A DNA stretch of 64,000 nt, taken from Squalus acanthias (taxonomy: Eukaryota). Shown here in pieces: positions 18,980 to 47,446 of the stretch. The notes below the pieces were generated by a model. It worked only from the letters and a program-made list of their open reading frames with translations, was not told the DNA's origin and did not search any database. A program made the position numbers and the translations under genes. Every line of letters begins with the position of its first letter. Within the stretch, counting starts at the first letter, position 1. The stretch lies in NCBI GenBank assembly GCA_030390025.1, contig JASTWF010000327.1:434001-498000 (forward strand), in the 5' to 3' direction.

Positions 18980-19822
18980 TCACTTGTGAACTCGCTGGTG
19001 TTTCAGCAGGTGGGATAACTGAATGAATCCCTTCCCACACACGGAGCAGGTGAACGGCCTCTCCCCAGTGTGAACTCGCTTGTGTGTCAGCAGGTTGGAT
19101 GATCGACTGAATTCCTTCCCACACACGGAGCAGGTGAACGGCCTCTCCCCAGTGTGAACTCGCTTGTGTGTCCGAAGGCCAGATGAACGAGTGAATCCCT
19201 TCCCACACACGGAGCAGGTGAACGGCCTCTCCCCAGTGTGAACTCGCTGGTGTGTCTGGAGACTGGACGAGCGAGTGAATCCCTTCCCACACACGGAGCA
19301 GGTGAACTGCCTCTCCCCAGTGTGAACTCGCTGGTGTGTCAGCAGGTGAGATGACTGAGTGAATCCGTTCCCACACACTGAGCAGGTGAACGGCCTCTCC
19401 CCAGTGTGAACTCGCTGGTGTGTCAGCAGGTGAGATGACTGAGTGAATCCGTTCCCACACACGGAGCAGGTGAACGACATCTCCCCAGTGTGAAGTCGCT
19501 GGTGTACAATGAGGTAGGATGACTGCTTGAACCTCTTCCCACAGTGAGTGCAGCTGAATGGTTTTTCATCAGTGTGAACTCGCAGATGTGTCTGGAGAAT
19601 GTGCGGGTGAGTGAATCCCTTCCCACACACGGAGCAGGTGAATGGCCTCTCCCCGGTGTGACAGCGATGATGATTTTTCAGCTCAGACGGGTAATTGAAT
19701 CCTTTCCCACACACGGAGCAGGTGAACAGTCTCTCCCCGGTGTGACCGCGTTGATGAATTTCCAGTTGGGATGGGTAATTGAATCCCTTCCCACAGTCCC
19801 CACATTTCCACGGTTTCTCCGT
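18980..19822 (-). CDS. C2H2 zinc-finger gene C (10 fingers; open frame from ACG at 19822, ~280 aa)
   Basis: Uninterrupted frame EKPWKCGDC...HQRVHK*; upstream in-frame TGAs at 19859-19861 and 20018-20020; exon acceptor near 20185. The start codon is uncertain. Confidence 0.8.
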
Positions 19823-20343
19823 GGTGCGGGTGTCCTTGTGTTTCTCCAGGTTGGACGATCAGTTGAAGCCTCGTCCACACACAGAACACGTGTATGGTTT
19901 CTCCCCGCTGTGAATGGTGCGATGTTTTTTCAGGCTGTGTAACTGGTTAAAGCTCTTTCCACTGTCAGTGCACTGGAACATTCTCACTCGGGTGTGTGTG
20001 TCTCAGTGCTTTTCCAGTCACACTGATGTTTGAAATCTTTCCCCACAGACAGAACAGACAAACATTTCTCCTTCCACATTCAAAGGCCGATGATATTCAG
20101 GTCCTGATGAATGGAGTGACTCTGTCAGATCTTGGTGATGTTTGGTTTGAGTTTCCCGTCTGTAAATCCTCCCCTTCTAATACCCTGTAAAAGGAGTTTA
20201 CAAAAGTTATCACTGTAAGTACAGGATAGAAATTCAGAACAGACAATTCTAGTTTCTATGGAACAATATTTCCTCTCTTGTTTCCCCAAAGCTGTAAATC
20301 CCCGTCCCACACACTCTCCCTCCTCCCTGTGCTGAAATCCAAA

Positions 20344-21037
20344 TCGGTACATCGGCGAGACCATGCAGACACTGAGACAACGTATGAACGAGCACCGCGC
20401 AACAATCGCCAGGCAGGATTGTTCCCTCCCAGTCGGGGAACACTTCAGCAGTCAAGGACATTCAGCCTCGGATCTGCGGGTAAGCGTTCTCCAAGGCAAC
20501 CTTAGAAACACACGACAACGCAAAATCATCGAGCAGAAACTGATAGCCAAGTTCTGCACTCATGAAGACGGTCTCAATCGGGATCTTGGGTTTATGTCAC
20601 GATACATGACGTGATCCGGACTCGAGTCGTCGTTAGCTTGTTCACAGATGTGATTCCCAGTAAAAAAGTAAAAATTTTCCCAGTAAAAAAGTAAATTTTT
20701 TTTTAAAGCTTTTCGTTTTACATACATACGGCAGCTTTTGACACGTTAGAACCCCTGCGACTTCACCTCATTGTCTCAGTTGTATCTTGCTATGTCTTTT
20801 GATGTGGTACCTTCCTGGCTGACTTAATTAACTTTATCACACCTCGGCAGATAGTCAGGATGATTTAATTTATTGGTCTGCAATTGTAAAGTACACATGC
20901 TTTTTTTTCCATCTATATATGCTCTGACGATTCTGTATCCAATTTACTTCACCTGAGGAAGGAGCGATAGTTCCGAAAGCTTGTGATTTCAAATAAAACT
21001 GTTGGACTATAACCTGGTGTTGTGCGACCTCTCAATT
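20344..21037 (+). mobile_element. 5'-truncated Penelope-like element (GIY-YIG C-terminus, 3' UTR, hammerhead)
   Basis: TLRQRMNEH...EQKLIAKF...GLNRD; 12-bp TSD CTGAAATCCAAA (20332-20343 / 21038-21049); empty site in the paralog at ~32935. Confidence 0.85.
20949..20986 (+). ncRNA. Minimal type I hammerhead ribozyme
   Basis: Reads tcac-CTGAGGA-a-GGAGC-gata-GTTCC-GAAA-GCTT-gtga. Confidence 0.65.
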
Positions 21038-21179
21038 CTGAAATCCAAACCCATTGCACCATCTCCAACATTTCTTTCCTCCACTCCCAGTTTTCCCCTC
21101 CCTCTACTCTGGTTGGGTTCAGTTCTACACCCGCTGTGTGCAGAGTGAGAATAAAATCAATGAGTCAATGATTGTCTCT

Positions 21180-21610
21180 CCTGGTCACTGGGACCCTGAA
21201 GCCCCGCCCACTCCCTGTTCCTGGCGAAAAACTGGCCGCGCATGCGCCGTGATCCGGCCCTGTCCAAGATGGCGGCCAGTGACCCCGCTGACCCGGGCGG
21301 CCGGGCCTGTCACCGCGGGGCAAACACGGGGCCTGTGGGCTTCGGGGCCTGAGGCCTACACCAGGTGTTTATGAAGCTTCCCAGCCCAGCCGCGAGTCCA
21401 ATTCCTCTCCGAACTCACAATCTCCTACCGCTTCCCGGGAGCGTGTCTTCCGATACAAACCCATCGAGCTCACTCGCACTACGCATGCTCAGAACACTGC
21501 CCGATCCTGCGCCTGCGCACTGGACTCTTGTAGTCATTGATAGGACACATTCTGCCGCGCGGGGGGTTCTGGGTAAACATCCCGCCATTGAAAGCCCCAA
21601 TTGGTGCGAA
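21180..21610 (-). promoter_or_regulatory. CpG-island promoter of ZNF gene C
   Basis: GCGCATGCGC at ~21238, YY1-like CAAGATGGCGGC at ~21265; inverted paralog of 45950-46380. Confidence 0.6.
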
Positions 21611-21704
21611 GAACATTTTTTATCATCCCATCGAGATTGAGGCCGGAAGGGCAATAAACAAAATTAATTTAAAAAAAGAGCCTGGTCCCTCCGCCGTCGT
21701 GCGA

Positions 21705-22415
21705 CCCTGAAATGAGCTTCCGACCACATATCCGCAGCATAACAAAGACCGCCTACTTCCACCTCCTTAACATCGCCCGTCTCCACCCTTGCCTCCGCTC
21801 ATCCGCTGCTGAAACCCTCATCCATGCCGTTGTTACCTCTAGATTTGACTATTCCAGTGAACTCCTGGCTGGCCTCCCACATTCTACCCTACGTAAACTT
21901 GAGGTCATCCAAAACTCTGCTGCTCCTGTCCTAACTTGCACCAAGTCCCATTCGCCCATCACCCCTGTGCTCGCTGACCTACATTGGCTCCTGGTTAAGC
22001 AACGCCTCAACTTCAAAATTCTCATCCTTGTTTTCAAATCCCTCCATGACCTCGCCCCTTCCTATCTCTGTATCTCCTTCAGCCCCACAACCCCCCGCGA
22101 TATCTGCGCTCCTCTAATTCTGCCCTCTTGAGCATCCCTGATTATAATCGCTCAACCATTGGTGGCCGTGCCTTCTGTTGCCTAGGCCCTAAGCTCTGGA
22201 ATTCCCTGCCTAAACCTGTCCGCCTCGCTACCTCTCTTTCCTTCTTTAAGATGCTCCTTAAAACCTACCTTTTTTACCAAGCTTTTGGTCACCTGCCCTA
22301 ATTTATCCTTATGTGGATCGGTATCAAATTTTTTGTCTTAAAATACTCCTGTGCAGCGCCTTGGGACGTTTTACTATGGTAAAGGTGCTATATAAATACA
22401 AGTTGTTGTTGTTGA
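21705..22415 (+). mobile_element. L2 LINE 3' fragment
   Basis: HIRSITKTAYFHL.NIARL...SRFDY...ITPVLADLHWL; 3' tail gctatataaatacaagttgttgttg. Confidence 0.85.
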
Positions 22416-22484
22416 CGTACGCTGGCCGCCAATTTTCAGTGACCAACTCGTACCTCAGGGCCCGCCCAGTCTGGTGTAATTTTT

Positions 22485-24710: not shown

Positions 24711-24745
24711 TACTGAGTCTTTCTAATTCCTATTTTATAGTCTCA

Positions 24746-24925: not shown

Positions 24926-25291
24926 GAGGAAGCTTGCTGTCTCCATCTCCCCATCCCAGTCCTTCACTCAGCAGCCTTTGATCTTTTCTGGGCTCTCTTT
25001 TCCCAGCCTTGGTGTTTTGCTCCTTTTAATGTGGGTGAATCGGGACCTCTCCCCGCCGAACCCCCTCTGCTGCTCCATTTCCCTGCTGCACCTTTTGTGC
25101 TCAGATATTTCCCATTGAAAAGGGTGTTGAGCTGCAGAGCAGAGGAGCCGAGGCCCCACTGCAGAGTGAGTGAAGGGGACTGCAGGACGGGCGCGGGCTG
25201 AGCGCTCAAACCCCGCGGGGAAAGAAACCGGGAAAAAGTCAGGCTCTGATTGGAGGATCAGCGACCACGTGCAGGAGAGGCAGGTTTCAGT

Positions 25292-28200
25292 GCTCACCCC
25301 AACTCCTCTTTCACCCCAACTCTCCAACCCCCCTCACCCCAACTCCTCTTTCACCCCTACTCTCCAACCCCCCTCACCCCAACTCCTCTTTCACCCCTAC
25401 TCTCCAACCCCCCTCACCCCAACTCCTCTTTCACCCCTACTCTCCAACCCCCCTCACCCCAACTCCTCTTTCACCCCTACTCTCCAACCCCCCTCACCCC
25501 AACTCCTCTTTCACCCCAACTCTCCAACCCCCCTCACCCCAACTCCTCTTTCACCCCAACTCTCCAACCCCCCTCACCCCAACTCCTCTTTCACCCCTAC
25601 TCTCCAACCCGCCTCTCCCCAACTCCTCTTTCACCCCTACTCTCCAACCCGCCTCTCCCCAACTCCTCTTTCACCCCTACTCTCCAACCCCCTCACCCCA
25701 ACTCCTCTTTCACCCCTACTCTCCAACCCCCCTCACCCCAACTCCTCTTTCACCCCTACTCTCCAACCCCCCTCACCCCAACTCCTCTTTCACCCCTACT
25801 CTCCAACCCCCCTCTCCCCAACTCCTCTTTCACCCCTACTCTCCAACCCCCCTCACCCCAACTCCTCTTTCACCCCTACTCTCCAACCCCCCTCACCCCA
25901 ACTCCTCTTTCACCCCTACTCTCCAACCCCCCTCACCCTAACTCCTCTTTCACCCCTACTCTCCAACCCCCCTCACCCCAACTCCTCTTTCACCCCTACT
26001 CTCCAACCCCCTCACCCCAACTCCTCTTTCACCCCTACTCTCCAACCCCCTCACCCCAACTCCTCTTTCACCCCTACTCTCCAACCCCCTCACCCCAACT
26101 CCTCTTTCACCCCTACTCTCCAACCCCCTTCACCCCAACTCCTCTTTCACCCCTACTCTCCAACACCCCTCACCCCAACTCCTCTTTCACCCCTACTCTC
26201 CAACCCCCCTCACCCCAACTCCTCTTCACCCCTACTCTCCAACCCCCCTCACCCCAACTCCTCTTTCACCCCTAGTCTCCAACCCCCTCACCCCAACTCC
26301 TCTTTCACCCCTACTCTCCAACCCCCTCACCCCAACTCCTCTTTCACCCCTACTCTCCAACCCCCCTCACCCCAACTCCTCTTTCACCCCTACTCTCCAA
26401 CCCCCTCACCCCAACTCCTCTTTCACCCCAACTCTCCAACCCCCTCACCCCAACTCCTCTTTCACCCCTACTCTCCAACCCCCCTCACCCCAACTCCTCT
26501 TTCACCCCTACTCTCCAACCCCCCTCACCCCAACTCCTCTTTCACCCCTACTCTCCAACCCCCCTCACCCCAACTCCTCTTTCACCCCTACTCTCCAACC
26601 CCCTCACCCCAACTCCTCTTTCACCCCTACTCTCCAACCCCCCTCACCCCAACTCCTCTTTCACCCCTACTCTCCAACCCCCCTCACCCCAACTCCTCTT
26701 TCACCCCTACTCTCCAACCCCCCTCACCCCAACTCCTCTTTCACCCCTACTCTCCAACCCCCCTCACCCCAACTCCTCTTTCACCCCTACTCTCCAACCC
26801 CCTCACCCCAACTCCTCTTTCACCCCTACTCTCCAACCCCCCTCACCCTAACTCCTCTTTCACCCCTACTCTCCAACCCCCCTCACCCCAACTCCTCTTT
26901 CACCCCTACTCTCCAACCCCCTCACCCCAACTCCTCTTTCACCCCTACTCTCCAACCCCCTCACCCCAACTCCTCTTTCACCCCTACTCTCCAACCCCCC
27001 TCACCCCAACTCCTCTTTCACCCCTACTCTCCAACCCCCCTCACCCCAACTCCTCTTTCACCCCTACTCTCCAACCCCCTCACCCCAACTCCTCTTTCAC
27101 CCCTACTCTCCAACCCCCCTCACCCCAACTCCTCTTTCACCCCTACTCTCCAACCCCCTCACCCCAACTCCTCTTTCACCCCTACTCTCCAACCCCCTCA
27201 CCCCAACTCCTCTTTCACCCCTACTCTCCAACCCCCTCACCCCAACTCCTCTTTCACCCCTACTCTCCAACCCCCCTCACCCCAACTCCTCTTTCACCCC
27301 TACTCTCCAACCCCCTCACCCCAACTCCTCTTTCACCCCTACTCTCCAACCCCCTCACCCCAACTCCTCTTTCACCCCTACTCTCCAACCCCCTCACCCC
27401 AACTCCTCTTTCACCCTACTCTCCAACCCCTCTCCCCAACTCCTCTTTCACCCCTACTCTCCAACCCCCTCACCCCAACTCCTCTTTCACCCCTACTCTC
27501 CAACCCCCTCACCCCAACTTCTCTTTCACCCCTACTCTCCAACCCCCCTCACCCCAACTCCTCTTTCACCCCTACTCTCCAACCCCCCTCACCCCAACTC
27601 CTCTTTCACCCCTACTCTCCAACCCCCTCACCCCAACTCCTCTTTCACCCCTACTCTCCAACCCCCCTCACCCCAACTCCTCTTTCACCCCTACTCTCCA
27701 ACCCCCCTCACCCCAACTCCTCTTTCACCCCTACTCTCCAACCCCCCTCACCCTAACTCCTCTTTCACCCCTACTCTCCAACCCCCCTCACCCCAACTCC
27801 TCTTTCACCCCTACTCTCCAACCCCCCTCACCCCAACTCCTCTTTCACCCCTACTCTCCAACCCCCTCACCCCAACTCCTCTTTCACCCCTACTCTCCAA
27901 CCCCCCTCACCCCAACTCCTCTTTCACCCCTACTCTCCAACCCCCCTCACCCCAACTCCTCTTTCACCCCTACTCTCCAACACCCCTCACCCCAACTCCT
28001 CTTTCACCCCTACTCTCCAACCCCCTCACCCCAACTCCTCTTCACCCCTACTCTCCAACCCCCCTCACCCCAACTCCTCTTTCACCCCTACTCTCCAACC
28101 CCCTCACCCCAACTCCTCTTTCACCCCTACTCTCCAACCCCCTCACCCCAACTCCTCTTTCACCCCTACTCTCCAACCCCCCTCACCCCAACTCCTCTTT

Positions 28201-30465
28201 CACCCCTACTCTCCAACCCCCTCACCCCAACTCCTCTTTCACCCCTACTCTCAACCCCCTCACCCCAACTCCTCTTTCACCCCTACTCTCCAACCCCCCT
28301 CACCCCAACTCCTCTTTCACCCCAACTCTCCAACCCCCCTCACCCCAACTCCTCTTTCACCCCTACTCTCCAACCCCCCTCACCCCAACTCCTCTTTCAC
28401 CCCTACTCTCCAACCCCCTCACCCCAACTCCTCTTTCACCCCTACTCTCCAACCCCCCTCACCCCAACTCCTCTTTCACCCCTACTCTCCAACCCCCCTC
28501 ACCCCAACTCCTCTTTCACCCCTACTCTCCAACCCCCCTCACCCCAACTCCTCTTTCACCCCTACTCTCCAACCCCCCTCACCCCAACTCCTCTTTCACC
28601 CCTACTCTCCAACCCCCCTCACCCCAACTCCTCTTTCACCCCTACTCTCCAACCCCCCTCACCCAACTCCTCTTTCACCCCTACTCTCCAACCCCCCTCA
28701 CCCCAACTCCTCTTTCACCCCTACTCTCCAACCCCCTCACCCCAACTCCTCTTTCACCCCTACTCTCCAACCCCCTCACCCCAACTCCTCTTTCACCCCT
28801 ACTCTCCAACCCCCTCACCCCAACTCATCTTTCACCCCTACTCTCCAACCCCCTTCACCCCAACTCCTCTTTCACCCCTACTCTCCAAACCCCTCACCCC
28901 AACTCCTCTTTCACCCCTACTCTCCAACCCCCCTCACCCCAACTCCTCTTTCACCCCTACTCTCCAACCCCTCACCCCAACTCCTCTTTCACCCCAACTC
29001 TCCAACCCCCTCACCCCAACTCCTCTTTCACCCCTACTCTCCAACCCCCCTCACCCCAACTCCTCTTTCACCCCTACTCTCCAACCCCCTCACCCCAACT
29101 CCTCTTTCACCCCTACTCTCCAACCCCCCTCACCCCAACTCCTCTTTCACCCCACTCTCCAACCCCCTCACCCCAACTCCTCTTTCACCCCTACTCTCCA
29201 ACCCCCTCACCCCAACTCCTCTTTCACCCCTACTCTCCAACCCCCTCACCCCAACTCCTCTTTCACCCCTACTCTCCAACCCCCTCACCCCAACTCCTCT
29301 TTCACCCCACTCTCCAACCCCTCACCCCAACTCCTCTTTCACCCCAACTCTCTAACCCCCTCACCCCAACTCCTCTTTCACCCCTACTCTCCAACCCCTC
29401 ACCCCAACTCCTCTTTCACCCCTACTCTCCAACCCCCTCACCCCAACTCCTCTTTCACCCCTACTCTCCAACCCCGCTCACCCCAACTCCTCTTTCACCC
29501 CTACTCTCCAACCCCCCTCACCCCAACTCCTCTTTCACCCCTACTCTCCAACCCCCTCACCCCAACTCCTCTTTCACCCCTACTCTCCAACCCCCTCACC
29601 CCAACTCCTCTTTCACCCCTACTCTCCAACCCCCCTCACCCCAACTCCTCTTTCACCCCTACTCTCCAACCCCCCTCACCCCAACTCCTCTTTCACCCCT
29701 ACTCTCCAACCCCCTCACCCCAACTCCTCTTTCACCCCTACTCTCCAACCCCCTCACCCCAACTCCTCTTTCACCCCTACTCTCCAACCCCCCTCACCCC
29801 AACTCCTCTTTCACCCCTACTCTCCAACCCCCTCACCCCAACTCCTCTTTCACCCCTACTCTCCAACCCCCTCACCCCAACTCCTCTTTCACCCCTACTC
29901 TCCAACCCCCCTCACCCCAACTCCTCTTTCACCCCTACTCTCCAACCCCCCTCACCCCAACTCCTCTTTCACCCCTACTCTCCAACCCCCTCACCCCAAC
30001 TCCTCTTTCACCCCTACTCTCCAACCCCCCTCACCCCAACTCCTCTTTCACCCCTACTCTACAACCCCCCTCACCCCAACTCCTCTTTCACCCCTACTCT
30101 CCAAACCCCTCACCCCAACTCCTCTTTCACCCCTACTCTACAACCCCCCTCACCCCAACTCCTCTTTCACCCCTACTCTCCAAACCCCCTCACCCCAACT
30201 CCTCTTTCACCCCTACTCTCCAACCCCCCTCACCTCAACTCCTCTTTCACCCCTACTCTCCAACCCCCCTCACCCCAACTCCTCTTTCACCCCTACTCTA
30301 CAACCCCCCTCACCCCAACTCCTCTTTCACCCCTACTCTCCAAACCCCCTCACCCCAACTCCTCTTTCACCCCTTCTCTCCAACCCCCGTCACCCCAACT
30401 CCTCTTTCACCCCAACTCCTCTTTCACCCCTACTCTCCAACCCCCTCACCTCAACTCTCCAACCA
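25292..30465. repeat. 5.2-kb C-rich minisatellite, 39-40-bp unit (~130 copies)
   Basis: Unit ccctcaccccaactcctctttcacccctactctccaaccc, with a variable C-run length. Confidence 0.98.
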
Positions 30466-30608
30466 CACTCTCCTATTTACAAATGATTCTGCAGATTCTT
30501 CTGATTGGGATCTTTCTTTATTCTGTCCACTCGAGGAGTGTGATAACAGACTTTCTCCTGTGAATATGGAGCTGGAGTATTGGGCAGTGATGTGTTTATT
30601 TGTTCATC

Positions 30609-30996
30609 TTGTTGAGTCTAAAGATTGAGTCTTGTGCTTTCAGACACGAGATAATCAAGCTCACAACAGATTGTCTTTCACTGACTTTATTAACAGCACT
30701 GCAAAGATACAGACAGAGTATAGTTACCCGATCCGGAGAACAGGGATAATACAGTGGAATCAGAGCTCTCTTCTCCCCAGGTCTGTTCTAACAAGCTGCG
30801 ACTACACTGGCGATATTTATATTTAACTTGTTTACTACATTATTGACCTGGCCCTGCCCAAACCATAACCACAAGGATATCTGTGCATTGTTCTGACTGT
30901 GACCACAAGGCTGTGTCACTATCACACACACACACCGTTTCCTTCTTTCACATCTCCATACACAGACCATCTCTTTACACATCCCCTTTCTACACA
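30609..30996 (-). mobile_element. Solo-LTR-like repeat (~390 bp)
   Basis: On the - strand it starts TGTGTAG, contains TATAAA and AATAAA, and ends ...TCAACA; copies at 51729-52115 (+) and partially 37778-37975 (+). Confidence 0.55.
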
Positions 30997-31749
30997 ATTG
31001 CAGCCGACATGAGCAAGGACGTGAGGCTCATTAAAAGACACACTCATTTCATGACAGCAAAGGTTACACTGGGACTAATCTTCAGTTATTTTCCATTACA
31101 GGCAAAGTGCAGAACGGTCCAGCAGCACATGGCACCTTAACAGAGTCTCATCGGCCTACAATATAGAGCTGGAGGATGGGCCATGATCTGTTTACTTGTT
31201 CATCTCTTGTACAATACATTTGCTGAGCGCATTTAAATTGAAAACCAGGTTTGCAGGTGTGATTCTCTATTCACACATCGAAGGTGAGAGAGATGCTGTG
31301 GGTCACACGCTAAGTCCAGTAGCTGGCAGTGATTAACAGACTGGGTTTTGTGTTCGTGATCCCAGGCGTGTTACCTGATACCTTCCCCGGATACCAAGGC
31401 TAGGAGAGGCACTCTGGAAGGTATGGGGAGCTGGGACTTGTCCATGAGAGTAACCGAAAGTATGAGAACTGAAATAATCTAAAGTTAGAAAAGAGAAAAG
31501 GCCCCAAAATGGAGCAGTCAGTAACAGGACATCAATTAGTCTCCTCTTAGCTTGGAGAAATCGAATACTCAACACACTGTGTGTTTGAAACAAAGCTGAT
31601 TTATTTGACAGGTATCAAAATATTAAAATCCAGCCCAGTTATAGGGGTTATTAACATCAGCAGAAACAAACCCCAACTGTCAGAATGAACATGGTTCAGT
31701 CCTGGATGTGATTAACAGCAGCAATAACAGCAGAATCCAACCCCTGCAG

Positions 31750-32424
31750 TCACTTGTGAACTCGCTGGTGTTTCAGCAGGTTAGATGACTGAGTGAATCC
31801 CTTCCCACACACAGAGCAGGGAAATGGCCTCTCCCCAGTGTGAATATGCCGGTGTGTCAGAAGGTGGGATGAACGAGTGAATCCCTTCCCACACGTGGAG
31901 CAGGTGAACGGTCTCTCCCCGGTGTGAGTGCGTTGGTGTTTCAGCAGATCCCTTCTGCTTTTAAAGCTCTGCTCACAGTCAGCACATTTAAATGGTCTCG
32001 TATCAGTGTGAACAAGTTGATGTGCAGTGAGGGTGGATGACTGAGTGAATCTGTTCCCACACACGGAGCAGGTGAACGGCCTCTCCCCAGTGTGAGTGCG
32101 TTGGTGTTGCATCAGATGCTTTCTGCTTTTAAAGCTCTTCTCACAGTCAGAACATTTAAACGATCTCTTATTAGAGTGAACAAGTTGGTGTGCAGCGAGG
32201 CTGGAGGAGTTAGTGAATCCCTTCCCACACACAGAGCAGGTCAATGGCCTCTCCCCAGTGTGAATACGCTGGTGTGTCAGAAGGTGGCATAATTTAGTGA
32301 ATCCCTTCCCACACACGGAGCAGGTGAACGGCCTCTCCCCGGTGTGACTGCGTCGATGAGTTTCCAGCTCAGATGGGTAATTGAATCCCTTCCCACAGTC
32401 CCCACATTCCCACGGTTTCTCCGT
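31750..32424 (-). CDS. C2H2 zinc-finger gene D (8 fingers; open frame from ACG at 32424, ~224 aa)
   Basis: Uninterrupted frame EKPWECGDC...HQRVHK*; upstream in-frame TGAs at 32461-32463 and 32620-32622; acceptor near 32790. Confidence 0.8.
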
Positions 32425-33156
32425 GGTGCGGGTGTCCTTGTGTCTCTCCAGGTTGGATGATCAGTTGAAGCCTCGTCCACACACAGAACACGTGTACGGT
32501 TTCTCCCCGCTGTGAACGGTGCGATGTTTTTTCAGGCTGTGTAACTGGTTAAAGCTCTTTCCACAGTCAGTGCACTGGAACACTCTCACTCGGGTGTGTG
32601 TGTCTCGGTGCTTTTCCAGTCACACTGATGTTTGAAATCTTTTCCCACAGACAGAACAAACAAACATTTCTCCTTCCACATTCAAAGGCCGATGATATTC
32701 AGGTCCTGATGAATGGAGTGACTCTGCCAGATCTTGACGTGATGTTTGGTTTGAGTTTCCCATCTGCAAATCCTCCCCTTCTAATACCCTGTAAAAGGAG
32801 TTTAGAAAAGTCATCACTGTAAGTACAGGATAGAAATAAAGAACAGACAATTCTAGTTTCTATGGAACATTCTTTCCTCTCTTGTTCCCCGAAAGCTATA
32901 AATCCCCGTCCCACACACTCTCCCTCCTCCCTGTGCTGAAATCCAAACCCATCGCACCATCTCCAAATTTTTTCCTCTGCTCCCAGTTTTCTTCATCCTC
33001 TGAAGGTGCTGACTCTGGCTGGGTTCAGTTCTACACTCACTGGTTCCCCTCCCTCTCCTCCCGTGAAGGTGCTGACTGAATGGATTCAGTTCTACACTCA
33101 CTGGTTCCCCACCTTATGAACTGCTTCGGGCACTTTGTTTACCACACACACAGCAT

Positions 33157-33410: not shown

Positions 33411-33584
33411 GACGCACATTAATCTGATGGGAGATCACTGACACACGAGCAGCCAGCGGTGTGGAGCCTCCCGAGAGTCCGGCCCCTTTCCAGCCAGTAT
33501 TTACAGGAGCTGGGGCACGGAAAACAGTCTAATTGAAATTAGTGATATATTTATTCACACAAACCAAGCCCCAAAATAATAAAT

Positions 33585-34318
33585 AATTTCTCCTTTATTT
33601 ACAGACGCTCCCTGACCAGTCACCATTTCTCCTCCATTTACAGACGCTCCCTGACCAGTCACCATTTCTCCTTTATTTACAGACGCTCCCTGACCAGTCA
33701 CCATTTCTCCTCCATTTACAGACGCTCCCTGACCAGTCACCATTTCTCCTCCATTTACAGACGTTCCCTGACCAGTCTCCATATCTCCTCCATTTACAGA
33801 CGCTCCCTGACCAGTCACCATTTCTCCTCCATTTACAGACGCTCCCTGACCAGTCACCATTTCTCCTCCATTTACAGACGTTCCCTGACCAGTCACCATT
33901 TCTCCTTTAGTTACAGACACTCCCTGACCAGTCTCCATTTCTCCTCCATTTACAGACGCTCCCTGACCAGTCACCATTTCTCCTTTAGTTACAGACACTC
34001 CCTGACCAGTCTCCATTTCTCCTCCATTTACAGACGCTCCCTGACCAGTCACCATTTCTCCTTTAGTTACAGACACTCCCTGACCAGTCTCCATTTCTCC
34101 TCCATTTACAGACGCTCCCTGACCAGTCACCATTTCTCCTTTAGTTACAGACACTCCCTGACCAGTCTCCATTTCTCCTCCATTTACAGACGCTCCCTGA
34201 CCAGTCACCATTTCGCCTCCATTTACAGACGCACCCTGACCAGTCACCATTTCTCCTCCATTTACAGACGCTCCCTGACCAGTCACCATTTCTCCTCCAT
34301 TTACAGACGCTCCCTGAC
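33585..34318. repeat. 39-bp minisatellite (~19 copies) with 78-bp higher-order alternation
   Basis: Unit catttctcctccatttacagacgctccctgaccagtcac alternates with a ...ctttagttacagacactcc... variant in the middle of the array. Confidence 0.95.
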
Positions 34319-34384
34319 TCGCTGGGGATTTCCCAGCACTTCCTGGTTGTCCCGGAGATTGTGTCTTAAACTGGCGGGTAGTTG

Positions 34385-35230
34385 TGGGGAGGCGGATAAT
34401 GTTGAGTGTTTTAATAATGGGGCCTGGGGCCGCACTCGGGGTGTGTGCAGCCCGCGTCCCCCCGGGGTTTATTAACCCGCTCCCTGAGCTCTCTCACCTG
34501 ATGTGTCAGCGGCTGCTGCCAAGGTCCGCGCATGCTCAGCTCACCTTCTGCTGTTCAGGTTCAAAGGTCAAGCCCCGCCCCTCACACACTCCGATTGGTT
34601 GGAGGACCCGCCGCCCGCTCGGTCCTCCAGTCCCGCCCTTCTCTTCCTATTGGTCCGGAGCTCCCGTCAATCACCCGGGCAGTGTGAGCTGAGCATGCGC
34701 GGACACATCAGGTGAGAGAGCTCAGGGATAACAACAGAAAACGCTGGAAAAACTCAGCAGGCCAGACAACATCCGTGGAGAGAGAAAGAGAGTTAACGTT
34801 TCAGGTTGAAACCCTTCGTCGGAACGTTCCGACGAAGGGTTTCGACCTGAAACGTTAACTCTCTTTCTCTCTCCACGGATGTTGTCTCGCCTGCTGAGTT
34901 TTTCCAGCGTTTTCTGTTGTTATTTCGGATTTCCAGCATCCGCAGTATTTTGCTATCGAGAGAGCTCAGGGAGCGGGTTAATAAACCCCGGGGGGACGCG
35001 GGCTGCACACACCCCGAGTGCGGCCCCCGGCCCCATTATTAAAACACCCCACATTATCCGCTTCACAAACACCAGGGGTGGGCCTCAGGCCCCGAACAAG
35101 AGCCTCCGGGCCGGGCGTTTGCCCCGAGCGGGGCGGCAGCTGCGGGGCTTTCTCCCGGTGACAGGCCCGGGTTAACGGCCGCCATCTTGACAGGCTCAGG
35201 GGGCAGCAGGGCGCATGCGCGGCCCCCTTG
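34385..35230. promoter_or_regulatory. Bidirectional CpG-island promoter between ZNF genes D and E, flanked by inverted repeats
   Basis: CCAAT/GC-box core at 34570-34680; inverted arms 34390-34508 and 34702-35061, each with CAG|GTGAGA; YY1-like site at ~35180. Confidence 0.7.
34729..34957. mobile_element. Palindromic Penelope-derived mini-element
   Basis: 15-bp TSD GAGAGAGCTCAGGGA (34714-34728 / 34958-34972); near-perfect ~196-bp palindrome centred at 34825/34826; hammerhead-like core with CCGACGA. Confidence 0.85.
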
Positions 35231-35669
35231 GCCAGGAACCAGGAGGAGAGAATCTTGGCAATTTCTATCCTGGACTCACAGTCATGGCTTTTGGAAACTT
35301 CTTTTACAGGCTGTGAGAAGCGCAGCATTTACACACTGCAAACTCTGACCAAACAACAACAACTTACCTTTATATAGCGCCTTTAAAATGTCACAGTAGT
35401 GCAGTCAGACAATAATCGACACACATACTTTGTTTGTGGTCCAGTGCACTGACACAAAGTTCCTTCACAACTGTAACAATTTTATTGCGGTTGCTGTGAA
35501 GGCTGCGCTCACTCTGCTCGTACACCTGGTCTCCAAAGGATGTTAACAGGACTAATGCTGCCGAGCTCAGCTCTTTTTGATCAGAAAATATCAGCTGTTT
35601 AGTCTCGCCAGGAAATGCACGAAAGAGGCAGCAGTGCTCATTGGCTGCCCAGGAAAGTCCTATTTAGAT

Positions 35670-35918
35670 TAAACTCCTTCACCCAGAGAGTGCTGAGAAT
35701 GTGGAACTTGCTGCCACAGGGAGTAGTTGAGGCGAAGAGCAGGGATGCATTTCAGGGGAAGCTGGATAAACACATGGGAGAAAGGAATAGAAGGAGATGC
35801 TGATAGGGTGAGATGAAGAGAGATGGGAGGAGGCTCGTGTGGAGCATAAACACCGCATGGACCAGTTGGGCTGATTGGCCTGTTTCTGTGCTGTACAATC
35901 TATGTTATTCGATGTAAT
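35670..35918 (+). mobile_element. CR1 3' fragment
   Basis: FTQRVLRMWNLLPQ...KLDKHM followed by a CR1 3' UTR. Confidence 0.75.
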
Positions 35919-36290
35919 AAGAGAGGAAAGAATGTTCCATAGAAACTGGAATTATCTGTTCTGCATTTTAATCCTCAACTTACAGTGATGTCTTTTGTAA
36001 ACTGCTTTTACAGGGAATATCATCAGCCTTTGAATGTGGAAGGAGAAATGTTTGCCTGTTCTGTCTGTGGGAAAAGATTTCAAACATCAGTGTGACTGGA
36101 AAAGCACCGAGACACACACACCCGAGTGAGAGTGTTCCAGTGCACTGACTGTGGAAAGAGCTTTAACCAGTTACACAGCCTGAAAAAACATCGCACCATT
36201 CACAGCGGGGAGAAACCGTACACGTATTCTGTGTGTGGACGAGGCTTCAACTGATCATCCAACCTGGAGAGACACAAGGACACCCGCACC

Positions 36291-37061
36291 ACGGAGAAAC
36301 CGTGGAAATGTGGGGACTGTGGGAAGGGATTCAGTTCCCTGTACCGTCTGGAAACTCATCGGCGCAGTCACACTGGGGAGAGGCCGTGCACCTGCTCTGA
36401 GTGTGGAAAGGGATTCAGTCAGTCATCCCAGCTGGTGAGACACCAGCGAGTTCACACTGGGGAGAGGCCGTTCACCTGCACTGTGTGTGGGAAGGGATTT
36501 GCTCAATTAACCAACCTCACTGAACACCAACTTGTTCACACTGAAAAGAGACCCTTCAAATGTTCTGACTGTGGGAAGAGCTTTAAAAGCGCAAGAGATC
36601 TGCTGACATACCAACAAACTCGCACTGGGGAGAGGCCGTTCACCTGCTCCGTGTGTGGGAAGGGATTCAGTAATTCATCCCACCTGCTGAGACACCAGCG
36701 AGTTCACACTGAGGAGAGGCCGTTCACCTGCTCCGTGTGTGGGAAGGGATTCAGTGATTCATCCAACCTGCTGAAACACCAGCAACTTCACACTGGGGAG
36801 AGGCCGTTCACCTGCTCCGTGTGTGGGAAGGGATTTGCTCGATTAACCAGTCTCACTAAACACCAACTTGTTCACGCTGAAAAGAGACCCATCAAATGTT
36901 CTAAGTGTGAGAAGATCTTTAAAAGCACAAGAGATCTGCTGACACACCAACACACTCACAGCGGAGAGAGGCCATTTACCTGCTCCGTGTGTGGGAAGGG
37001 ATTCACTCAGTCATGCCAACTGCTGAGACACCAGCGAGTTCATACTGGGGAGAGGCCATAA
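36291..37061 (+). CDS. C2H2 zinc-finger gene E (9 fingers, one degenerate, from ACG at 36291); a premature TAA at 37059-37061 removes 2 further fingers (ancestral stop 37215-37217)
   Basis: Open frame from ACG through HTGERP*; upstream TGAs at 36093-36095 and 36252-36254. Confidence 0.75.
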
Positions 37062-37214
<153 letters not shown>

Positions 37215-37979
37215 TGACTGCAGGGGTTGGATTCTGCTGTTTTTGCTGCTGTTAATCACATCCAGGACTGAACCATATTCATTCTGACAGGTGAGGTTTG
37301 TTCCTGCTGATGAGAATACCTCCTGTAACTGGGCTGAAGTTTAATATTCTGGATAAATGTCAAATACACAGTGTGTCGAGTATTTCTTTCCTCCAAGGTA
37401 AGAGGAGACTAATTGATGTCCTGTTACAGACTGTTCCATTTTTGGGCTTTTTCTCCTTTCTAACTCCACATTATCTCAGTTCTAACACCTTCAGTTATTC
37501 TCAAGTCCCAGCTCCCCACACCTTCCAGAGAGCCTGCAATAGAAAATGACTGAAGATTTATCCCAATGTAACTATTGCTGTTATCCAAGGAAACAGGCTT
37601 GTATTTCTGTCGAACCTTTCACAACCTCAGGACGTCCCAAAGTGCTTTACAGACAAGGAAGTACTTTTGAAGTGTAGTCACTGTTCTAATGTAGGAAATT
37701 TGTGCACAGCAAGCTCCCACAAACAGCAGCGTGACATTGACCAGGTAATCTATTTTTCAATGACGTTGATTGAGGATAGAAGGGGATGTGTAAAGAGATG
37801 GTCTGTGTATGGAGATGTGAAAGAAGGAAACGGTGTGTGTGTGTGATAGTGACACAGCCTTGTGGTCACAGTCAGAACAATGCACAGATATCCTTGTGGT
37901 TATGGTTTGGGCAGGGCCAGATCAATAATGTAGTAAACAAGTTAAATATAAATATCGCCAGTGTAGTTGCAGCGAAGAA

Positions 37980-39448: not shown

Positions 39449-39449
39449 A

Positions 39450-40105
39450 CAGTGGGTAGCACTCTCGCCTCTGAGGCATAGGTTGTCAGTTCAAGTCCCA
39501 CTCCAGAGACTTGAGCACAGAAATCCAGGCTGACACTCCAGTGCAGTACTGAGGCACTGTCAGAGGTGGTGTCTTTCGGATGAGACATTAAACTGAGGCC
39601 CTGTCTGCTCTCTCAGGTGGATGTAAAAGATCCCATGGCACTATTTCGAGAAAGAAAGACTTGCATTTATACCGTGCTTTCATGACCACCAGACGTCCCA
39701 AAGCGCTTTACAGCCAATGAAGTACTTTTGAGGTGTAGTCACTGTTGTAATGTGGGAAAGAGCAGGGGATTATCCCCGGTGTCCAAGCCAATGTTTATCC
39801 CTCAATCAACATAACAAAAGGATAATAGCAAAATACTGTGGATGCTGGAAATCTGAAATAACAACAGAAAATGCTGGAAACACTCAGCAGGCCAGGCAGC
39901 ATCCGTGGAGAGAGAAACAGAGTTAACAAAAAGATTATCTGGTCATTATCAGATTGCTGTTTGTGGGAGCTTGCTGTGCGCTGATTGGCTGCCGCGTTTC
40001 TTACATTACAACAGTGACTACACTTCAAAAGTACTTAATTGGCTGTAAAGCGCTTTGGGACGTCCGGTGGTGGTGAAAGGCGCTATAGAAATGCAAATCT
40101 TTCTT
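39450..40105 (+). mobile_element. tRNA-derived SINE(s), paralog of 5840-6418
   Basis: agtgggtagcactctcgcctctgag...ttcaagtcccactccag head and L2-like tail. Confidence 0.7.
39820..39923 (-). mobile_element. Penelope 3'-repeat fragment inserted in the SINE
   Basis: TSD TAACAAAA (39812-39819 / 39924-39931); matches the sequence downstream of the hammerhead in other copies; empty site at ~6020. Confidence 0.75.
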
Positions 40106-41587
40106 GACTCTATTTTTTCTCCCCTTGTCCAGTCTCTTCCCACCTACATCCGCGACTCTTCCGATGCCCTCCGCCATTTTAACAGTTTCCAGTTTCCCGG
40201 CCCCAACCGTCTCCTCTTCACTATGGACGTACAATCCCTCTACACCTCCATTCCCCATCAGGATGGCCTGAGGGCGCTCCGCTTCTTCCTTGAACAGAGG
40301 CCCAACCAGTCCCCATCCACCACCACCCTCCTCCGCCTGGCTGAACTTGTTCTCACATTGAACAACTTCTCCTTTGACTCTACCCATTTCCTCCAAATTA
40401 AAGGTGTTGCTATGGGTACCCGCATGGGTCCTAGCTATGCCTGCCTTTTCGTGGGATATGTGGAACACTCTTTGTTCCAGTCCTACTCGGGTCCCCTCCC
40501 TCACCTCTTTTTCCGGTACATTGATGACTGTATCGGTGCCGTCTCCTGCTCTCGCCCTGAACTAGAACATTTCATTCACTATGCTTCCAATTTCCACCCT
40601 TCCCTCACCTTCACATGGTCCATCTCCGACTCTTCTCTTCCCTTCCTCGACTTCTCCATCTCCATCTCTGGGGATAGGTTATTGACTAACATTCACTACA
40701 AGCCCACCGACTCCCACAGCTACCTGGACTACACTTCCTCCCACCCCGCCTCCTGTAAGGACTCTATTCCATTCTCCCAGTTTCTCCGTCTCCGCCGCAT
40801 CTGCTCTGATGATGCCACCTTCCATACCAGTGCTTCCGACATGTCTTCCTTTTTCCTCAACCGAGGATTCCCCTCTACCGTGGTCGACACGGCCCTCGAC
40901 CGTGTCCGTTCTATCTCCCGCACATCTGCCCTCACCCCTGCCCCTCCCTCCCGGAACCACGATAGGGTTCCCCTTGTCCTCACCTTTCACCCCACCAGCC
41001 TCCACATTCAACGGATCATCCTCCGCCATTTCCGCCACCTCCAGCGTGATCCCACCACCAAACACATCTTCCCCTCACCTCCCCTTTCAGCATTCCGCAG
41101 GGACCGCTCCCTCCGCGACACCCTAGTCCACTCCTCTACCACCCCCAGCACCCCTTCCCCTTCGCCCGGCACCTTCCCGTGCACGCGCAGGAGATGCAAC
41201 ACATGCCCTTATACCTCCCCTCTTCCCACTGTCCAGGGCCCCAAACACCCCTTCCAGGTGAAACAGCGATTTACTTGTACTTCCTGCAATTTAGTATACT
41301 GTATTCGCTGCTCACGATGTGGACTCCTCTACATTGGGGAGACCAAACGCAGATTGGGTGACCGCTTTGCGGAACACCTCCGTTCAGTCCGTAAGGGGGA
41401 CCCCGAGCTCCCGGTGGCCTGTCACTTTAATTCACCGCTTCACTCCCACTCTGACCTCACCGTCCTCGGCCTAATACACTGTTCCACGGAAGCTCAGCGT
41501 AAGCTCGAGGAACAGCACCTCATCTTTCGTTTAGGCACGCTACAGCCCTCTGGACTCAATATCGAGTTCAACAATTTTAGATCATAA
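40106..41587 (+). CDS. Penelope RT-GIY-YIG endonuclease ORF (N-terminally truncated, otherwise uninterrupted)
   Basis: MDVQSLYT, GVAMGT, FRYIDD, LPFLD, YKPT; LVYCIRC...LYIGET...RFAEH...EQHLI...GLN. Confidence 0.92.
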   Translation, partial: DSIFSPLVQSLPTYIRDSSDALRHFNSFQFPGPNRLLFTMDVQSLYTSIPHQDGLRALRFFLEQRPNQSPSTTTLLRLAELVLTLNNFSFDSTHFLQIKGVAMGTRMGPSYACLFVGYVEHSLFQSYSGPLPHLFFRYIDDCIGAVSCSRPELEHFIHYASNFHPSLTFTWSISDSSLPFLDFSISISGDRLLTNIHYKPTDSHSYLDYTSSHPASCKDSIPFSQFLRLRRICSDDATFHTSASDMSSFFLNRGFPSTVVDTALDRVRSISRTSALTPAPPSRNHDRVPLVLTFHPTSLHIQRIILRHFRHLQRDPTTKHIFPSPPLSAFRRDRSLRDTLVHSSTTPSTPSPSPGTFPCTRRRCNTCPYTSPLPTVQGPKHPFQVKQRFTCTSCNLVYCIRCSRCGLLYIGETKRRLGDRFAEHLRSVRKGDPELPVACHFNSPLHSHSDLTVLGLIHCSTEAQRKLEEQHLIFRLGTLQPSGLNIEFNNFRS

Positions 41588-42730: not shown

Positions 42731-42809
42731 TCTCTCCACGGATGCTGCCTGGCCTGCTGAGTTTTTCCAGCGTTTTCTGTTGTTATTGCAAATCTTTCTT
42801 TCTTCACTG

Positions 42810-43450: not shown

Positions 43451-43589
43451 TATTCCCCTTATTGGACACAAGGCGCTTTGTCTCACAACACACTGGCTCA
43501 GATTTTAATAGAGACTTTTTAAATTCATGAATAAAAGCAGATAAACCCCGTGCTTCTGTGGCACAAACTTTCTAATATTTTACAGAATT

Positions 43590-45875
43590 ATAGAATGGTT
43601 ACAGCACAGAAGGAGGCCATTCAGCCCGTCGAGCCCGTGCCGACTCTCTGCAAGAGCACTTCAGCTAGTCCCACTCCCCTGCCCTTTCCCCGTAGCCCTG
43701 CAAATTTCTTTCCTTCAGGTACTTATCCAATTCCCTTTTGAAAGCTGTGATTGAATCTGCCTCCACCACCCTTTCAGGCAGTGCATTCCAGATCCTAACC
43801 ACTCGCTGCGTAAAAAAGTTTCCCCTCACGTCACTAATCTAGTCTCATACTCTCTCTTTGCCCCTCTTATTCCCTTTTAAATCTCCTCTGTACATTCTAT
43901 ATTCAGCTTGGTTCTCTACTGTATTCTGTCATAAGCTTCATTTTCTGTCTCGTTTTAACCTCTCTATATCTTTTGTCATCGAGAGAGCTCTAGCTTTGGA
44001 TGCACCTCCTTTCCCCCTTGTGGGAATGTGTTTACTCTGTACTCGAACTCCTGGTTGAAGGCCTCCCATTGTTCAATTACTGTTTTGCCTACCAATTTTT
44101 GATTCCAATCCACCTGGGCCAGATCCCTTTTTAACTCCTTTAAGTTAGCCCTCCCCCAGTTAAGTATTTTTATGCTTGATTGTTCCTTGTTCTTTTCTGT
44201 AACTATTCTAAACCTGATGACATTATGATCAGTGTTCCTCAAATGCTCCCGCACTGAAACATGCTCCACTTGCCCCATTTCATTCCCCAGAACTAGATCC
44301 AGCACTGCTTCTTTCCTCGTTGGGCTGGAAACAGTGTTTAAGAAAGTTCTCTTGTACACATTTCAGGAATTTCTCCCCCTCTATGTCCTTTACACTGTTA
44401 CTATCGCAGTCTATATTAGGATAATTGAAGTCTTCCATTATCACTACACCGTAGTTCCTGTATCTTTCTGTAATTTGTCTGCAAACTTGCTTCTCTCTCT
44501 CCTTCCCATTGTTTGGCGACCTATAGTATACACCCAGTAGCGTAATAGCTCCTCTATTGTTCCTTAAATCGAACCAAATAGATTCTGTTTTTGACCTCTC
44601 ACATAGAATCATAGAATGGTTACAGCACAGAAGGAGGCCATTTGGCCCGTCGAGCCCATGCTGGCTCTGTGCAAGTGTACTTCAGTTAATCCCACTCCCC
44701 CGCCCTTTCCCCGTAGCCCTGGAAAAAAAATTCCTTCAGGTACTTATCTAATTCCCTTTTGAAAGCCACGATTGAATCTGCCTCCACCACCCTTTCAGGC
44801 AGTGCATTCCAGATCATAACTACTCGCTGTATAAAAAGGTTTTTCCTCATGTTGCCTTTGGTTCTTCTGCCAATTACCTTAAATCTGTGTCCTCTGGTTC
44901 TCGACCTTTCCGCCAATGGGAACAGTTTCTCTCTATCTACTCTGTCCAGACCCCTCGTGATTTTGAACACCTCGATCAAATCTCCTCTCAACCTTCTCTG
45001 TTCTAAGGAGAACAACCCCAGCTTCTCGAGCTTATCCACGTAACTGAAGTCCCTCATCCCTGGAATCATTCTTGTAAATCTTTTCTGCACCATCTCCAAG
45101 GCCTTCACATCCTTCCTAAAGTACAGTGTCCAGAATTGGGCTCAATACTCCAGTTGAGGCAGAACCAGTGTTTTATAAAGGTTCATCATAACTTCCTTGC
45201 TTTTGGACTCTATGCCACTATTTATGAAACCCAGGAACCTGTATGCTTTTTTAACTGCTTTCTCAACCTGCCCTGCCACCTTAATGATTTGTGCACATAT
45301 ACCCCCAGGTCTCTCTGTTCATGCACCCCCTTTAGAATTGTACCCTTTAGTTTATATTGCCTTTCCTCATTCTTTCTACCAAAATGTATTAATTCGCATC
45401 TTTCTGCATTAAATTTCATCTGCCATGTGTCCGCCCATTCCACCAGCCTGTCTATGTCCTCTTGAAGTCTATCACTATCCTCCTCACTGTTACCTATACT
45501 TCCAACTTTTGTGTCATCTGCAAGTTTTGAAATTGTGCCCTGTACAGCCAAGTGCAAGTCATTAATATATATCAGGAAAAGCAGTGGTCCTAGTCCCTCT
45601 CCAGTGCTATAATAGTTTATTTGATCAATACTGCACATCTCCTTTTTTCCTTTCCTATCTTTCCTGAATACCTTGTAGCCAGGAATATCGAGTTCCCAAT
45701 CCTCCCCTTGTTTGAGCCAGCTCTCTGTTATTGCCACTATATCATAGTCCCATGTGGGTACTTGTGCCTGCAGTTCACCAATGTTATGTACCACGCTCGG
45801 TGCATTTACACACATGCACTCCAACTCCATCGTAGAATGCCTCAAACCTGTCTGATCCCTCCTATGTCTGAATAT
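43590..45875 (-). mobile_element. Nested CR1 fragments (endonuclease region plus RT/3' ends)
   Basis: EN motifs (ITESW, YYRSPN, DFNYP, LDLVL, DHN) and RT C-terminal ORF 44686-45108. Confidence 0.85.
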
Positions 45876-45949
45876 TAAAAATTCTTTATATAGTGATTTT
45901 GTTTATTCTCCTCCGGTCCCAACTTCAATGGGATGACAAAAGATCTGTC

Positions 45950-46380
45950 CACCAATTGGGGGTGTAAATGGTGGTAAATTAACCCAGAATCCTCCGCGAG
46001 GTGTAAAGTGCCCCATCAGTGACGACAGGATCCCAGTGCGCCGGCGCAGTAACTGGGTGTGCTCTGAGCATGCGCAGTGCGTGTGGTGCTGTTGGCTTGA
46101 GCGGAACAGGCGGGACAGCGGCCGGGAGGCGGGAGGAGATTGTGGTCGCAGGGGATGGATTGGACCAGCGCGTGAGTTTAAAAGCTTTATAAACACCTGG
46201 TGTAGGCCTGAGGCCCCGAATAAGAGCCACAAGCCCCGTGTTTTCCCCGGTTACAGGCCCGGTCCGTGACCGCCCGGGTGATCCGGGTCACTGGCTGCCA
46301 TCTTGGACAGGCGGGTCTCACGGCACATGCGCGGTACATTAGCCAGGAACAAAGAGTGGGCGGGGCTTCAGGGTCTCTGT
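45950..46380 (+). promoter_or_regulatory. CpG-island promoter of ZNF gene F
   Basis: CCAAT, GCATGCGC, YY1-like GCCATCTTG (~46297) and a GC box; paralog of 21180-21610. Confidence 0.6.
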
Positions 46381-46524
46381 CAGTTTGATTGGACCACATG
46401 TTTCTCCCATATTAGTGGCCCCTGAAAGGGAGCCTTGTTGGGCTGATTCTTGTTTGGTGACCCTGGGGCAACCCAGTCTCACCCTATTGGTCCATCCAAA
46501 AAGGCCCAGTGACCAGGAGAGACA

Positions 46525-46674
46525 CAACACCAGGTTATAGTCCAACAGATTTACCTGAAGAAGGGGCGATAGCTCCGAAAGCTTGTAATTTTAAATAAAT
46601 CTGTTGGACTATAACCTGGTGTTGTGCGACTTCTCATTTTTGTCCACCCCAGTCCAACGCCGGCATCTCCGCAT
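46525..46674 (+). mobile_element. 150-bp Penelope-derived hairpin element with a hammerhead ribozyme
   Basis: 11-bp TSD CAGGAGAGACA (46514-46524 / 46675-46685); 31-bp inverted repeat 46523-46553 / 46596-46626; empty site at ~21170-21190. Confidence 0.85.
46551..46588 (+). ncRNA. Minimal type I hammerhead ribozyme
   Basis: Reads ttac-CTGAAGA-a-GGGGC-gata-GCTCC-GAAA-GCTT-gtaa. Confidence 0.65.
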
Positions 46675-47446
46675 CAGGAGAGACAATCATTGACTCATTG
46701 ATTTTATTCTCACTCTGCACACAGCGGGTGTAGAACTGAACCCAACCAGAGTAGAGGGAGGGGGAAAACTGGGAGTGGAGGAAAGAAATGTTGGAGATGG
46801 TGCGATGGGTTTGGATTTCAGCACAGGGAGGAGGGAGAGTGTGTGGGACGGGGATTTACAGCTTTGGAGGAACAAGAGAGGAAAGAATGTTCCACAGAAA
46901 CTAGAATTGTCTGTTCTGAATTTCTAGCCTGTACTTAGTGATGATTTTGTAAATTCCTTTTACAGGGTATTAGAAGGGGAAAATATGCAAACAGGAAACT
47001 CAAACCAAACATCATGTGAAGAGCTGACAGATTCACTCGATTGATCAGGACCTGAATATCATCGCGCTTTGAATGTGGAAGGAGAAATGTTTGCTCTGTC
47101 TGTGGGAAAAGATTTCAAACATCAGTGTGACTGGAAAAGCACCGAGACACACACACCCGAGTGAGAGTGTTCCAGTGCACTGACTGTGGAAAGAGCTTTA
47201 ACCAGTTACACAGCCTGAAAAAACATCGCACCATTCACAGCGGGGAGAAACCGTACACGTGTTCTGTGTGTGGACAAGGCTTCAACTGATCGTCCAACCT
47301 GGAGAGACACAAGGACACCCGCACCACGGAGAAACTATGGAAATGTGGGGACTGTGGGAAGGGATTCAGTTAACAGTCCCAGCTGGAGACCGGGGATAGG
47401 CTGTTCACCTGCTCTCTCTCGGAAGGGATTCACTCAATTGTCTAGC

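Follow-up and report, generated by a model that had tools for sequence, protein, structure and literature searches.

A possible non-AUG start behind a leader of dead fingers in a large zinc-finger gene family of the shark Squalus acanthias

A stretch of 64,000 nucleotides (nt) from contig JASTWF010000327.1 of the shark Squalus acanthias, here called the window and numbered within itself, harbours four C2H2 zinc-finger genes (C, D, E and F), in which a leader of dead fingers with two in-frame TGA codons (TGA1 and TGA2) is followed by an ACG triplet in strong Kozak context and then by a tandem finger array. With somewhat better than even confidence, we interpret this arrangement as a non-coding leader with short upstream open reading frames (uORFs), followed by weak initiation at the ACG, and possibly at a CUG that lies in frame 27 nt before it, where decay of the CpG within the ACG to ATG would serve as a repeated up-switch. 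In the family to which these genes belong, protein constraint switches on at the ACG/ATG site. Codon offsets are counted from the candidate ACG as 0, with negative values upstream.

TGA1 lies at -198 and TGA2 at -39 in all four genes, and the twelve positions assigned to these codons in the original prediction are correct throughout. On the minus strand, TGA1, TGA2 and the ACG are located at 20020, 19861 and 19822 in gene C and at 32622, 32463 and 32424 in gene D; on the plus strand, they are located at 36093, 36252 and 36291 in gene E and at 47128, 47287 and 47326 in gene F. The context GCACC-ACG-G claimed for all of them is found in four out of four, and the open frame without an early ATG described for C, D and E is likewise borne out. 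From the candidate start of gene C (19820..19822) the frame runs through 280 amino acids (aa) and 10 fingers without an effector domain (18980..19822), its first Met being residue 115, and from that of gene D (32422..32424) through 224 aa and 8 fingers (31750..32424), with the first Met at residue 105; both frames are open up to the family's usual end. The frame of gene E (36291..37061) comprises 256 aa with 8 canonical fingers and not a single Met, and is closed by a premature TAA, behind which two further fingers lead to the family's usual stop (37215-37217). In gene F the ACG frame meets a TAA after 15 codons (47326..47373), and an ATG at 47447 opens 21 fingers in another frame (615 aa, 47447..49294). 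Of the four window genes, two (C and D) are intact, E carries a premature stop and F is broken. The genes form tandem arrays of 8 to 21 adjacent fingers with conserved linkers, and for all four the listed Pfam rows name finger domains only (PF00096, PF13465), with no KRAB, SCAN or other N-terminal effector among them. Their closest proteins are from sharks, at 80-90% identity over the first finger.

The leaders extend from a predicted splice acceptor, which lies 277-364 nt upstream of the ACG, and span 19823..20184 in gene C (minus strand; acceptor CTTTTACAG|G, inferred from sequence), 32425..32788 in gene D (minus), 36014..36290 in gene E (plus) and 46966..47325 in gene F (plus, with a 4-nt deletion). 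As previously reported, C, D and E each have a short ATG-initiated frame that terminates at TGA1; it begins at -243 (20065, 32667 and 36048, respectively; in gene D also at 32763). A further leader ATG at -257 opens a frame of 31 codons, the ATG at -239 in gene F is out of frame, and gene C contains a third in-frame TGA at -183 (20005). An upstream exon is unable to join the array in frame through such a leader.

The subfamily to which these genes belong is large. An exact 29-letter flank pattern, which sets a lower bound, retrieves at least 1,546 copies across the genome, and a DNA search returned 1,861 candidates, the 40 scored of which show 97-100% identity. In a family of this size, the stops common to the four window genes reflect descent rather than convergence, and the four are not independent observations. 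The expansion is clustered and lineage-wide, with relatives in five shark genera. For the analyses of constraint, 300 fetched loci and the window yielded 314 distinct copies (151 ACG, 110 ATG, 50 ACA and 3 other), a sample deliberately enriched for ATG and ACA copies and cleared of those with less than 450 nt upstream or less than 700 nt downstream to the locus end.

The leader does not behave as protein-coding sequence. Its ratio of nonsynonymous to synonymous change (dN/dS) is 1.24 as judged from private changes, with 19 new stops versus 19.4 expected; if only private de novo changes in the 314 copies are counted and states occurring in any other copy are excluded, the ratio is 1.27 (confidence interval (CI) 0.87-1.78), with 7 nonsense changes versus 7.5 expected. 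A frameshifting indel between -243 and -19 is present in 111 of 285 full-leader copies, and 50 of the 52 distinct indels shift the frame. The uORF peptides show no constraint, the uORFs being remnants of dead fingers. Among 120 listed protein hits out of 256 (limited to 167-534 aa), identity to the leader region does not rise above 52%. These results uphold the view of the leader as a non-coding 5' region with short uORFs. Its near-identity between copies also holds: mean pairwise divergence is 3.9% in the leader (500 of 500 pairs aligned), compared to 9.0% in the 3' untranslated region (UTR; 387 pairs), 10.7% in the first exon part (305) and 6.1% in the intron (169), a uniformity that could stem from constraint at the nucleotide level or from gene conversion.

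The two stops vary to different degrees. TGA2, which we take to occupy helix position -1, is CGA in 39 of the 314 sampled copies and elsewhere TAA, AGA, GGA or TCA, while TGA1, presumably at helix position +3, is nearly fixed and reads CGA in a single copy. The null explanation offered earlier, decay of an arginine CGA to TGA in a common ancestor, hence fits TGA2 well and TGA1 only weakly; this inherited scar and the non-coding leader are both true together.

Behind the site the picture is reversed. Arrays headed by ACG have a dN/dS of 0.63 (CI 0.49-0.84), a value of 0.40 (0.23-0.59) for the framework residues Cys, His, Phe and Leu, and 9 new stops versus 22.8 expected; the same measures are 0.42 (0.30-0.63), 0.15 and 5 versus 21.2 for ATG arrays, and 0.84 (0.43-1.87), 0.59 and 2 versus 2.6 for ACA arrays. 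The contrast between leader and arrays was sought by the original prediction, and the neutral drift that would mark the ACG arrays as pseudogenes is not seen. In 22 recent collinear ACG pairs, one nonsense change stands against 7.0 expected; strict ATG pairs and ACA pairs hold too few changes for use. Tree-based branch estimates (framework 0.08 for ACG, 0.17 for ACA) are not relied on, since recombination inflates synonymous homoplasy. Among 78 intact ACG arrays with at least four fingers, 25 lack Met altogether and only 7 have one within the first 56 residues, and an upstream in-frame ATG open into the array occurs in 2 of 141 ACG copies. A near-cognate codon in strong context thus heads a constrained reading frame without an early AUG.

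The codon at the site is ACG in 1,058 of the 1,546 copies, ATG in 424, ACA in 47 and something else in 17. At a control CpG 6 nt upstream, C>T is found in 109 copies (approximately 6.3%) and G>A in 79 (approximately 4.6%), so that the ATG share of 27.4% is about fourfold over control decay. In this genome-wide tally, which had been suggested as a check, the gain of ATG is strongly enriched, whereas the loss of ACG to ACA is barely depleted.

ACG is the backbone state in trees of 284 copies built from the leader, the array or both, with a slight (1-2 steps), midpoint-based preference for ACG at the root. These trees hold 44-50 changes from ACG to ATG and 22-28 from ACG to ACA, and the codon states cost 77-81 steps compared to about 122 with shuffled labels; ATG arose approximately 50 times among 102 sampled ATG copies. 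Among 25 database proteins read, of which only subfamily members covering the site were counted, Thr occupies the site in Heterodontus (P0086) and Pristiophorus (P0128), Met in Heterodontus (P0124), Mustelus (P0138) and Cetorhinus (P0141), in the last two as the N-terminal residue, and Val or Ile in Scyliorhinus (P0134, P0145). Contigs of four other organisms also carry both states, with T at the site in 8, 61, 62 and 73 contigs, while ACA is rare (0, 9, 15 and 12). The ACG/ATG dimorphism is therefore old and shared. An ATG-led relative without the extra fingers (copy L213) has a Gly codon (GGG) at the site, which identifies it as a former finger-linker codon. Two further relatives, at 1350-2789 (minus strand, with a frameshift near the end) and 6776-8557 (plus), bear an ATG (MEAKS, MEGES) where the subfamily has GTG; a census of the ATG-led relative type (3 versus 136), made with an approximate motif on loci picked for the present subfamily, is not used as evidence. 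The idea that ATG is a mere mark of age was rejected, as the divergence of ATG leaders (2.1%) does not exceed that of ACG leaders (2.6%).

Two A positions at the site are rarely changed. The A at -3 is changed in 2 copies and unchanged in 1,482, and the codon's own A is changed in 5 of 1,546 copies, two of them reading TTG, compared to 27 and 6 copies at control A sites; this rarity leans towards selection, yet lies within the spread of leader sites. The G at +4 is lost in 14 ATG and 13 ACG copies (14 of 27 ATG). No common structure emerged from six 60-nt folds behind the ACG (-8 to -17 kcal/mol, without a shuffle control), and a shared hairpin is not apparent among them. The proposal of the ACG as a near-cognate start gains from the constrained array behind it, but had overlooked a CTG in an equally strong context (TCCAAC-CTG-G). 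This codon lies in frame at -27, after TGA2, in all four window genes (19849, 32451, 36264 and 47299) and in 293 of 311 copies, with a purine at its -3 position in 311 of 311; one ACG copy (L209) has ATG instead. No in-frame stop separates -36 from -18 in 314 copies. The CUG is a candidate second start, which could account for intact ACA copies.

A number of results weigh against a working ACG. ACA, at 3.0%, hardly falls below the G>A control, and the skew at the site therefore reflects mainly a gain of ATG rather than protection of ACG. Other leader CpGs are lopsided too, up to 36:8 and 11:55, although these are variant counts and independent origins were counted at the ACG only. The rarely changed A at -3 is not unique, given that no more than one variant occurs at 28 of the 75 A sites of the leader across about 285 copies, and the +4 G does not discriminate, because neighbouring CpG changes are likewise commoner in ATG copies (about 49 of 100 listed, by hand count). 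New upstream ATGs in the leader are not clearly avoided. Framework constraint is weaker in ACG than in ATG arrays (bootstrap 0.015), the dN/dS of ACA arrays is inseparable from that of ACG arrays, and strict ACG pairs yield 0.71 with an interval (0.42-1.26) that includes 1. Finally, intact arrays amount to 85 of 146 for ACG, 76 of 110 for ATG and 36 of 50 for ACA, with no pair significantly different.

Such results would suit a history in which the ACG copies form an untranslated reservoir, only ATG-decayed copies make protein, and gene conversion resets leaders to ACG and lends them arrays selected in ATG copies. The fourfold excess of ATG with ACA near control, the strongest constraint on ATG arrays, the 61 of 146 ACG arrays that are broken, and a leader that is half as diverged as the 3' UTR and attached to upstream exon pieces of more than one type, as expected under conversion, all speak for it. 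By our arithmetic, however, a framework dN/dS of 0.40 would require about 70% of the ACG branch length to have passed under ATG-like constraint, while ATG accounts for 27% of copies and its lineages are for the most part tips or clades of small size (29 internal branches versus 218 for ACG). Moreover, the codon state follows the tree of the leader as well as that of the array, and nonsense is depleted even in recent ACG pairs, so that we regard a silent reservoir as unlikely, albeit as a serious contender. Still less probable is that the non-ATG copies start mainly at the CUG, with the ACG an ordinary Thr codon in a short N-terminal tail. The position, context and prevalence of the CTG, the lack of an intervening stop, the ATG replacement in one copy and the intact ACA arrays would all agree with this, and CUG is described as generally the most efficient near-cognate start (PMC5666671). 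Yet conservation of the CTG does not rise above that of a typical leader codon, the stop-free stretch from -36 to -18 offers few single changes that make a stop, and ACG>ACA, being synonymous under this scheme, ought to occur no less often than control decay, whereas it is slightly rarer.

Three further schemes carry little weight. An upstream ATG exon might be spliced into the array behind TGA2, rendering the TGAs and the ACG irrelevant, as automated database gene models that join upstream exons to the region (P0086, P0128, P0145) and a YY1-like AAGATGGCGGC upstream of some copies would suggest. These models differ from one another, however, there is no polypyrimidine tract between TGA2 and the ACG, and the only clear acceptor lies upstream of the leader. 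A single joint across 36225-36335 is listed for one sequencing run of unstated kind (X18) and none for two runs guessed to be RNA; 18 of the 24 rows in the run search were guessed to be RNA and none is RNA on record. Contig depth is lower upstream of gene D's predicted acceptor than in its leader in four such runs, which was not counted, because depth cannot rank parts and introns diverge faster; no splice joint was legible there among the 15 listed out of 440 joints. Splicing of this kind is accordingly very improbable, and editing of the ACG to AUG in the mRNA appears more improbable again. C-to-U editing is known from plant organelles and would explain constraint without a genomic ATG; the T at the site, however, is not in excess in two runs guessed to be RNA (12% and 22% of summed contig depth) relative to two other runs (48% and 61%) or to the 27% of copies here, a weak comparison that involves different organisms and contig depth. 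Readthrough of the TGAs or their decoding as selenocysteine, yielding a protein with three more fingers, would account for a TGA1 kept in nearly all copies with a CUG right behind it. It is the least credible of all and was rejected, since frame and coding constraint are absent upstream of the site and TGA2 is variable. A search for the selenocysteine insertion sequence (SECIS) revealed no such family among four Rfam matches in 18000-50500, and a crude SECIS core motif, found in 56 of 214 3' UTRs versus 38 shuffled ones, is not specific.

Weak initiation at the ACG can be cast as a sequence of events. In a shark zinc-finger gene, the three leading fingers died and turned into an untranslated leader, and the gene was copied at least 1,546 times. 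Ribosomes might bypass two or three short uORFs ending 160-200 nt upstream by continued scanning, or resume initiation after them, and start at the ACG with initiator Met, the CUG at -27 providing a possible second entry; the intact fingers would thus probably be translated at a low level. Deamination of the CpG inside the ACG would then be a one-step switch to higher output, which appears to have been retained much more frequently than the equivalent decay to ACA. More speculatively, a weak start may hold down the combined dose of a very large family without effectors, and reduce ribosome collisions on tandem fingers.

Such a start has counterparts in known systems. CUG, GUG, ACG and AUU initiate at reduced efficiency with Met-tRNAi, and vertebrate near-cognate main starts include GUG in eIF4G2/DAP5 and ACG in FMR1 polyG (PMC5666671); the shark site resembles these in its near-cognate codon, its strong Kozak context and the lack of an in-frame AUG nearby. 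Those cases are single genes, whereas the shark site is common to about 1,000 paralogs, derives from a linker, toggles to ATG by CpG decay and is a candidate start. Transcription-factor mRNAs such as those of ATF4 and GCN4 are controlled by uORFs and reinitiation. The short AUG uORFs of the shark genes similarly end well upstream of the main start, but they are dead-finger remnants without peptide constraint, and the likeness concerns sequence rather than a stress response. Tetrapod KRAB-ZNFs and cyprinid FiNZ-ZNFs, described in a survey of finger genes that was based on open reading frames (Wells et al. 2023, PMC10547256), share with the shark family clustered C2H2 arrays of fast turnover, TGERP-type linkers, a single exon and hundreds to thousands of copies. 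The shark genes differ from them in that KRAB, SCAN or other effectors are missing from the listed Pfam rows, the N-terminal fingers are a shared non-coding leader, and in the majority of copies the array is not headed by an AUG. The terms "shark" and "start codon" are absent from the main text of that survey, and our literature search, with most subscription journals outside its reach, found no paper on the start codon of this subfamily. In zebrafish, tandem C2H2 mRNAs suffer ribosome collisions and Znf598-dependent no-go decay, and the mRNA became more stable once initiation was blocked (Ishibashi et al. 2024, PMC11620358); by analogy, this system of likewise tandem-finger mRNAs offers only a possible reason for a weak start in sharks.

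Several other features of the family and the window are worth recording. Head-to-head pairs with 2-4 kb between the two members are common among the copies, as in the window (32424/36291) and at C133:101016/103238, C195:23495/25718 and C297:84188/86410. Between the divergent genes D and E, a GC-rich stretch (34300..35310) contains motifs that we take to be CCAAT-like boxes and a YY1-like AAGATGGCGGC (35188, minus strand), and is likely a promoter shared by both. A YY1-like motif occurs within 5 kb upstream in antisense orientation in 89 of 128 copies and in sense orientation in 33. Gene E is preceded by two acceptor-like stretches of different type (35260-35355 and 35910-36014) with repeat DNA between them, a sign of the leader having been joined to different upstream pieces. 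The array usually ends in a TGA (220 of 251 sampled copies; CGA in 14), probably another CGA-to-TGA scar, whose UGA-CUG context could be leaky; the 17-codon tail behind it is in frame in 220 of 251 copies and encoded in gene F and some others (37215-37270 and 49234-49294, plus strand; 31696-31752 and 18926-18982, minus strand). The window further holds a finger array disrupted by a stop and a frameshift (9452-9848, plus), a transposase of 358 aa (Pfam DDE_Tnp_4; 12563-13639, plus) and a second open frame facing it (13899-15775, minus), which together look like a PIF/Harbinger element. A tandem repeat of about 5 kb, G-free on the plus strand and open in several frames, spans 25170-30628. A minisatellite with a unit of about 39 nt (33560-34320) and a 100-nt near-palindrome (34774-34877, Rfam matches below gathering scores) lie between D and E. 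A 512-aa frame (40049-41587, plus) reads to us like a Penelope-like reverse transcriptase with a C-terminal nuclease, and fragments of CR1-like long interspersed elements are numerous elsewhere.

In its broadest form, which is tentative and which we would put at somewhat below even chances, our proposal is that of a pan-shark family of more than 1,000 zinc-finger genes with a default non-AUG start born from a finger linker, in which the CpG of the ACG would act as a mutational volume switch: new copies would be quiet, and one deamination would grant a full AUG. Non-AUG main starts are known for single genes, but not as the default of a family this large. Should the ACG copies instead be an untranslated reservoir, the genome would hold a large stock of silent genes activated by CpG decay, which is less surprising, yet still unusual. 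If the proposal is true, annotation that relies on AUG overlooks or wrongly models the greater part of a very large family of shark transcription factors, and this family would show how a genome could trial new DNA-binding arrays at low dose before commitment.

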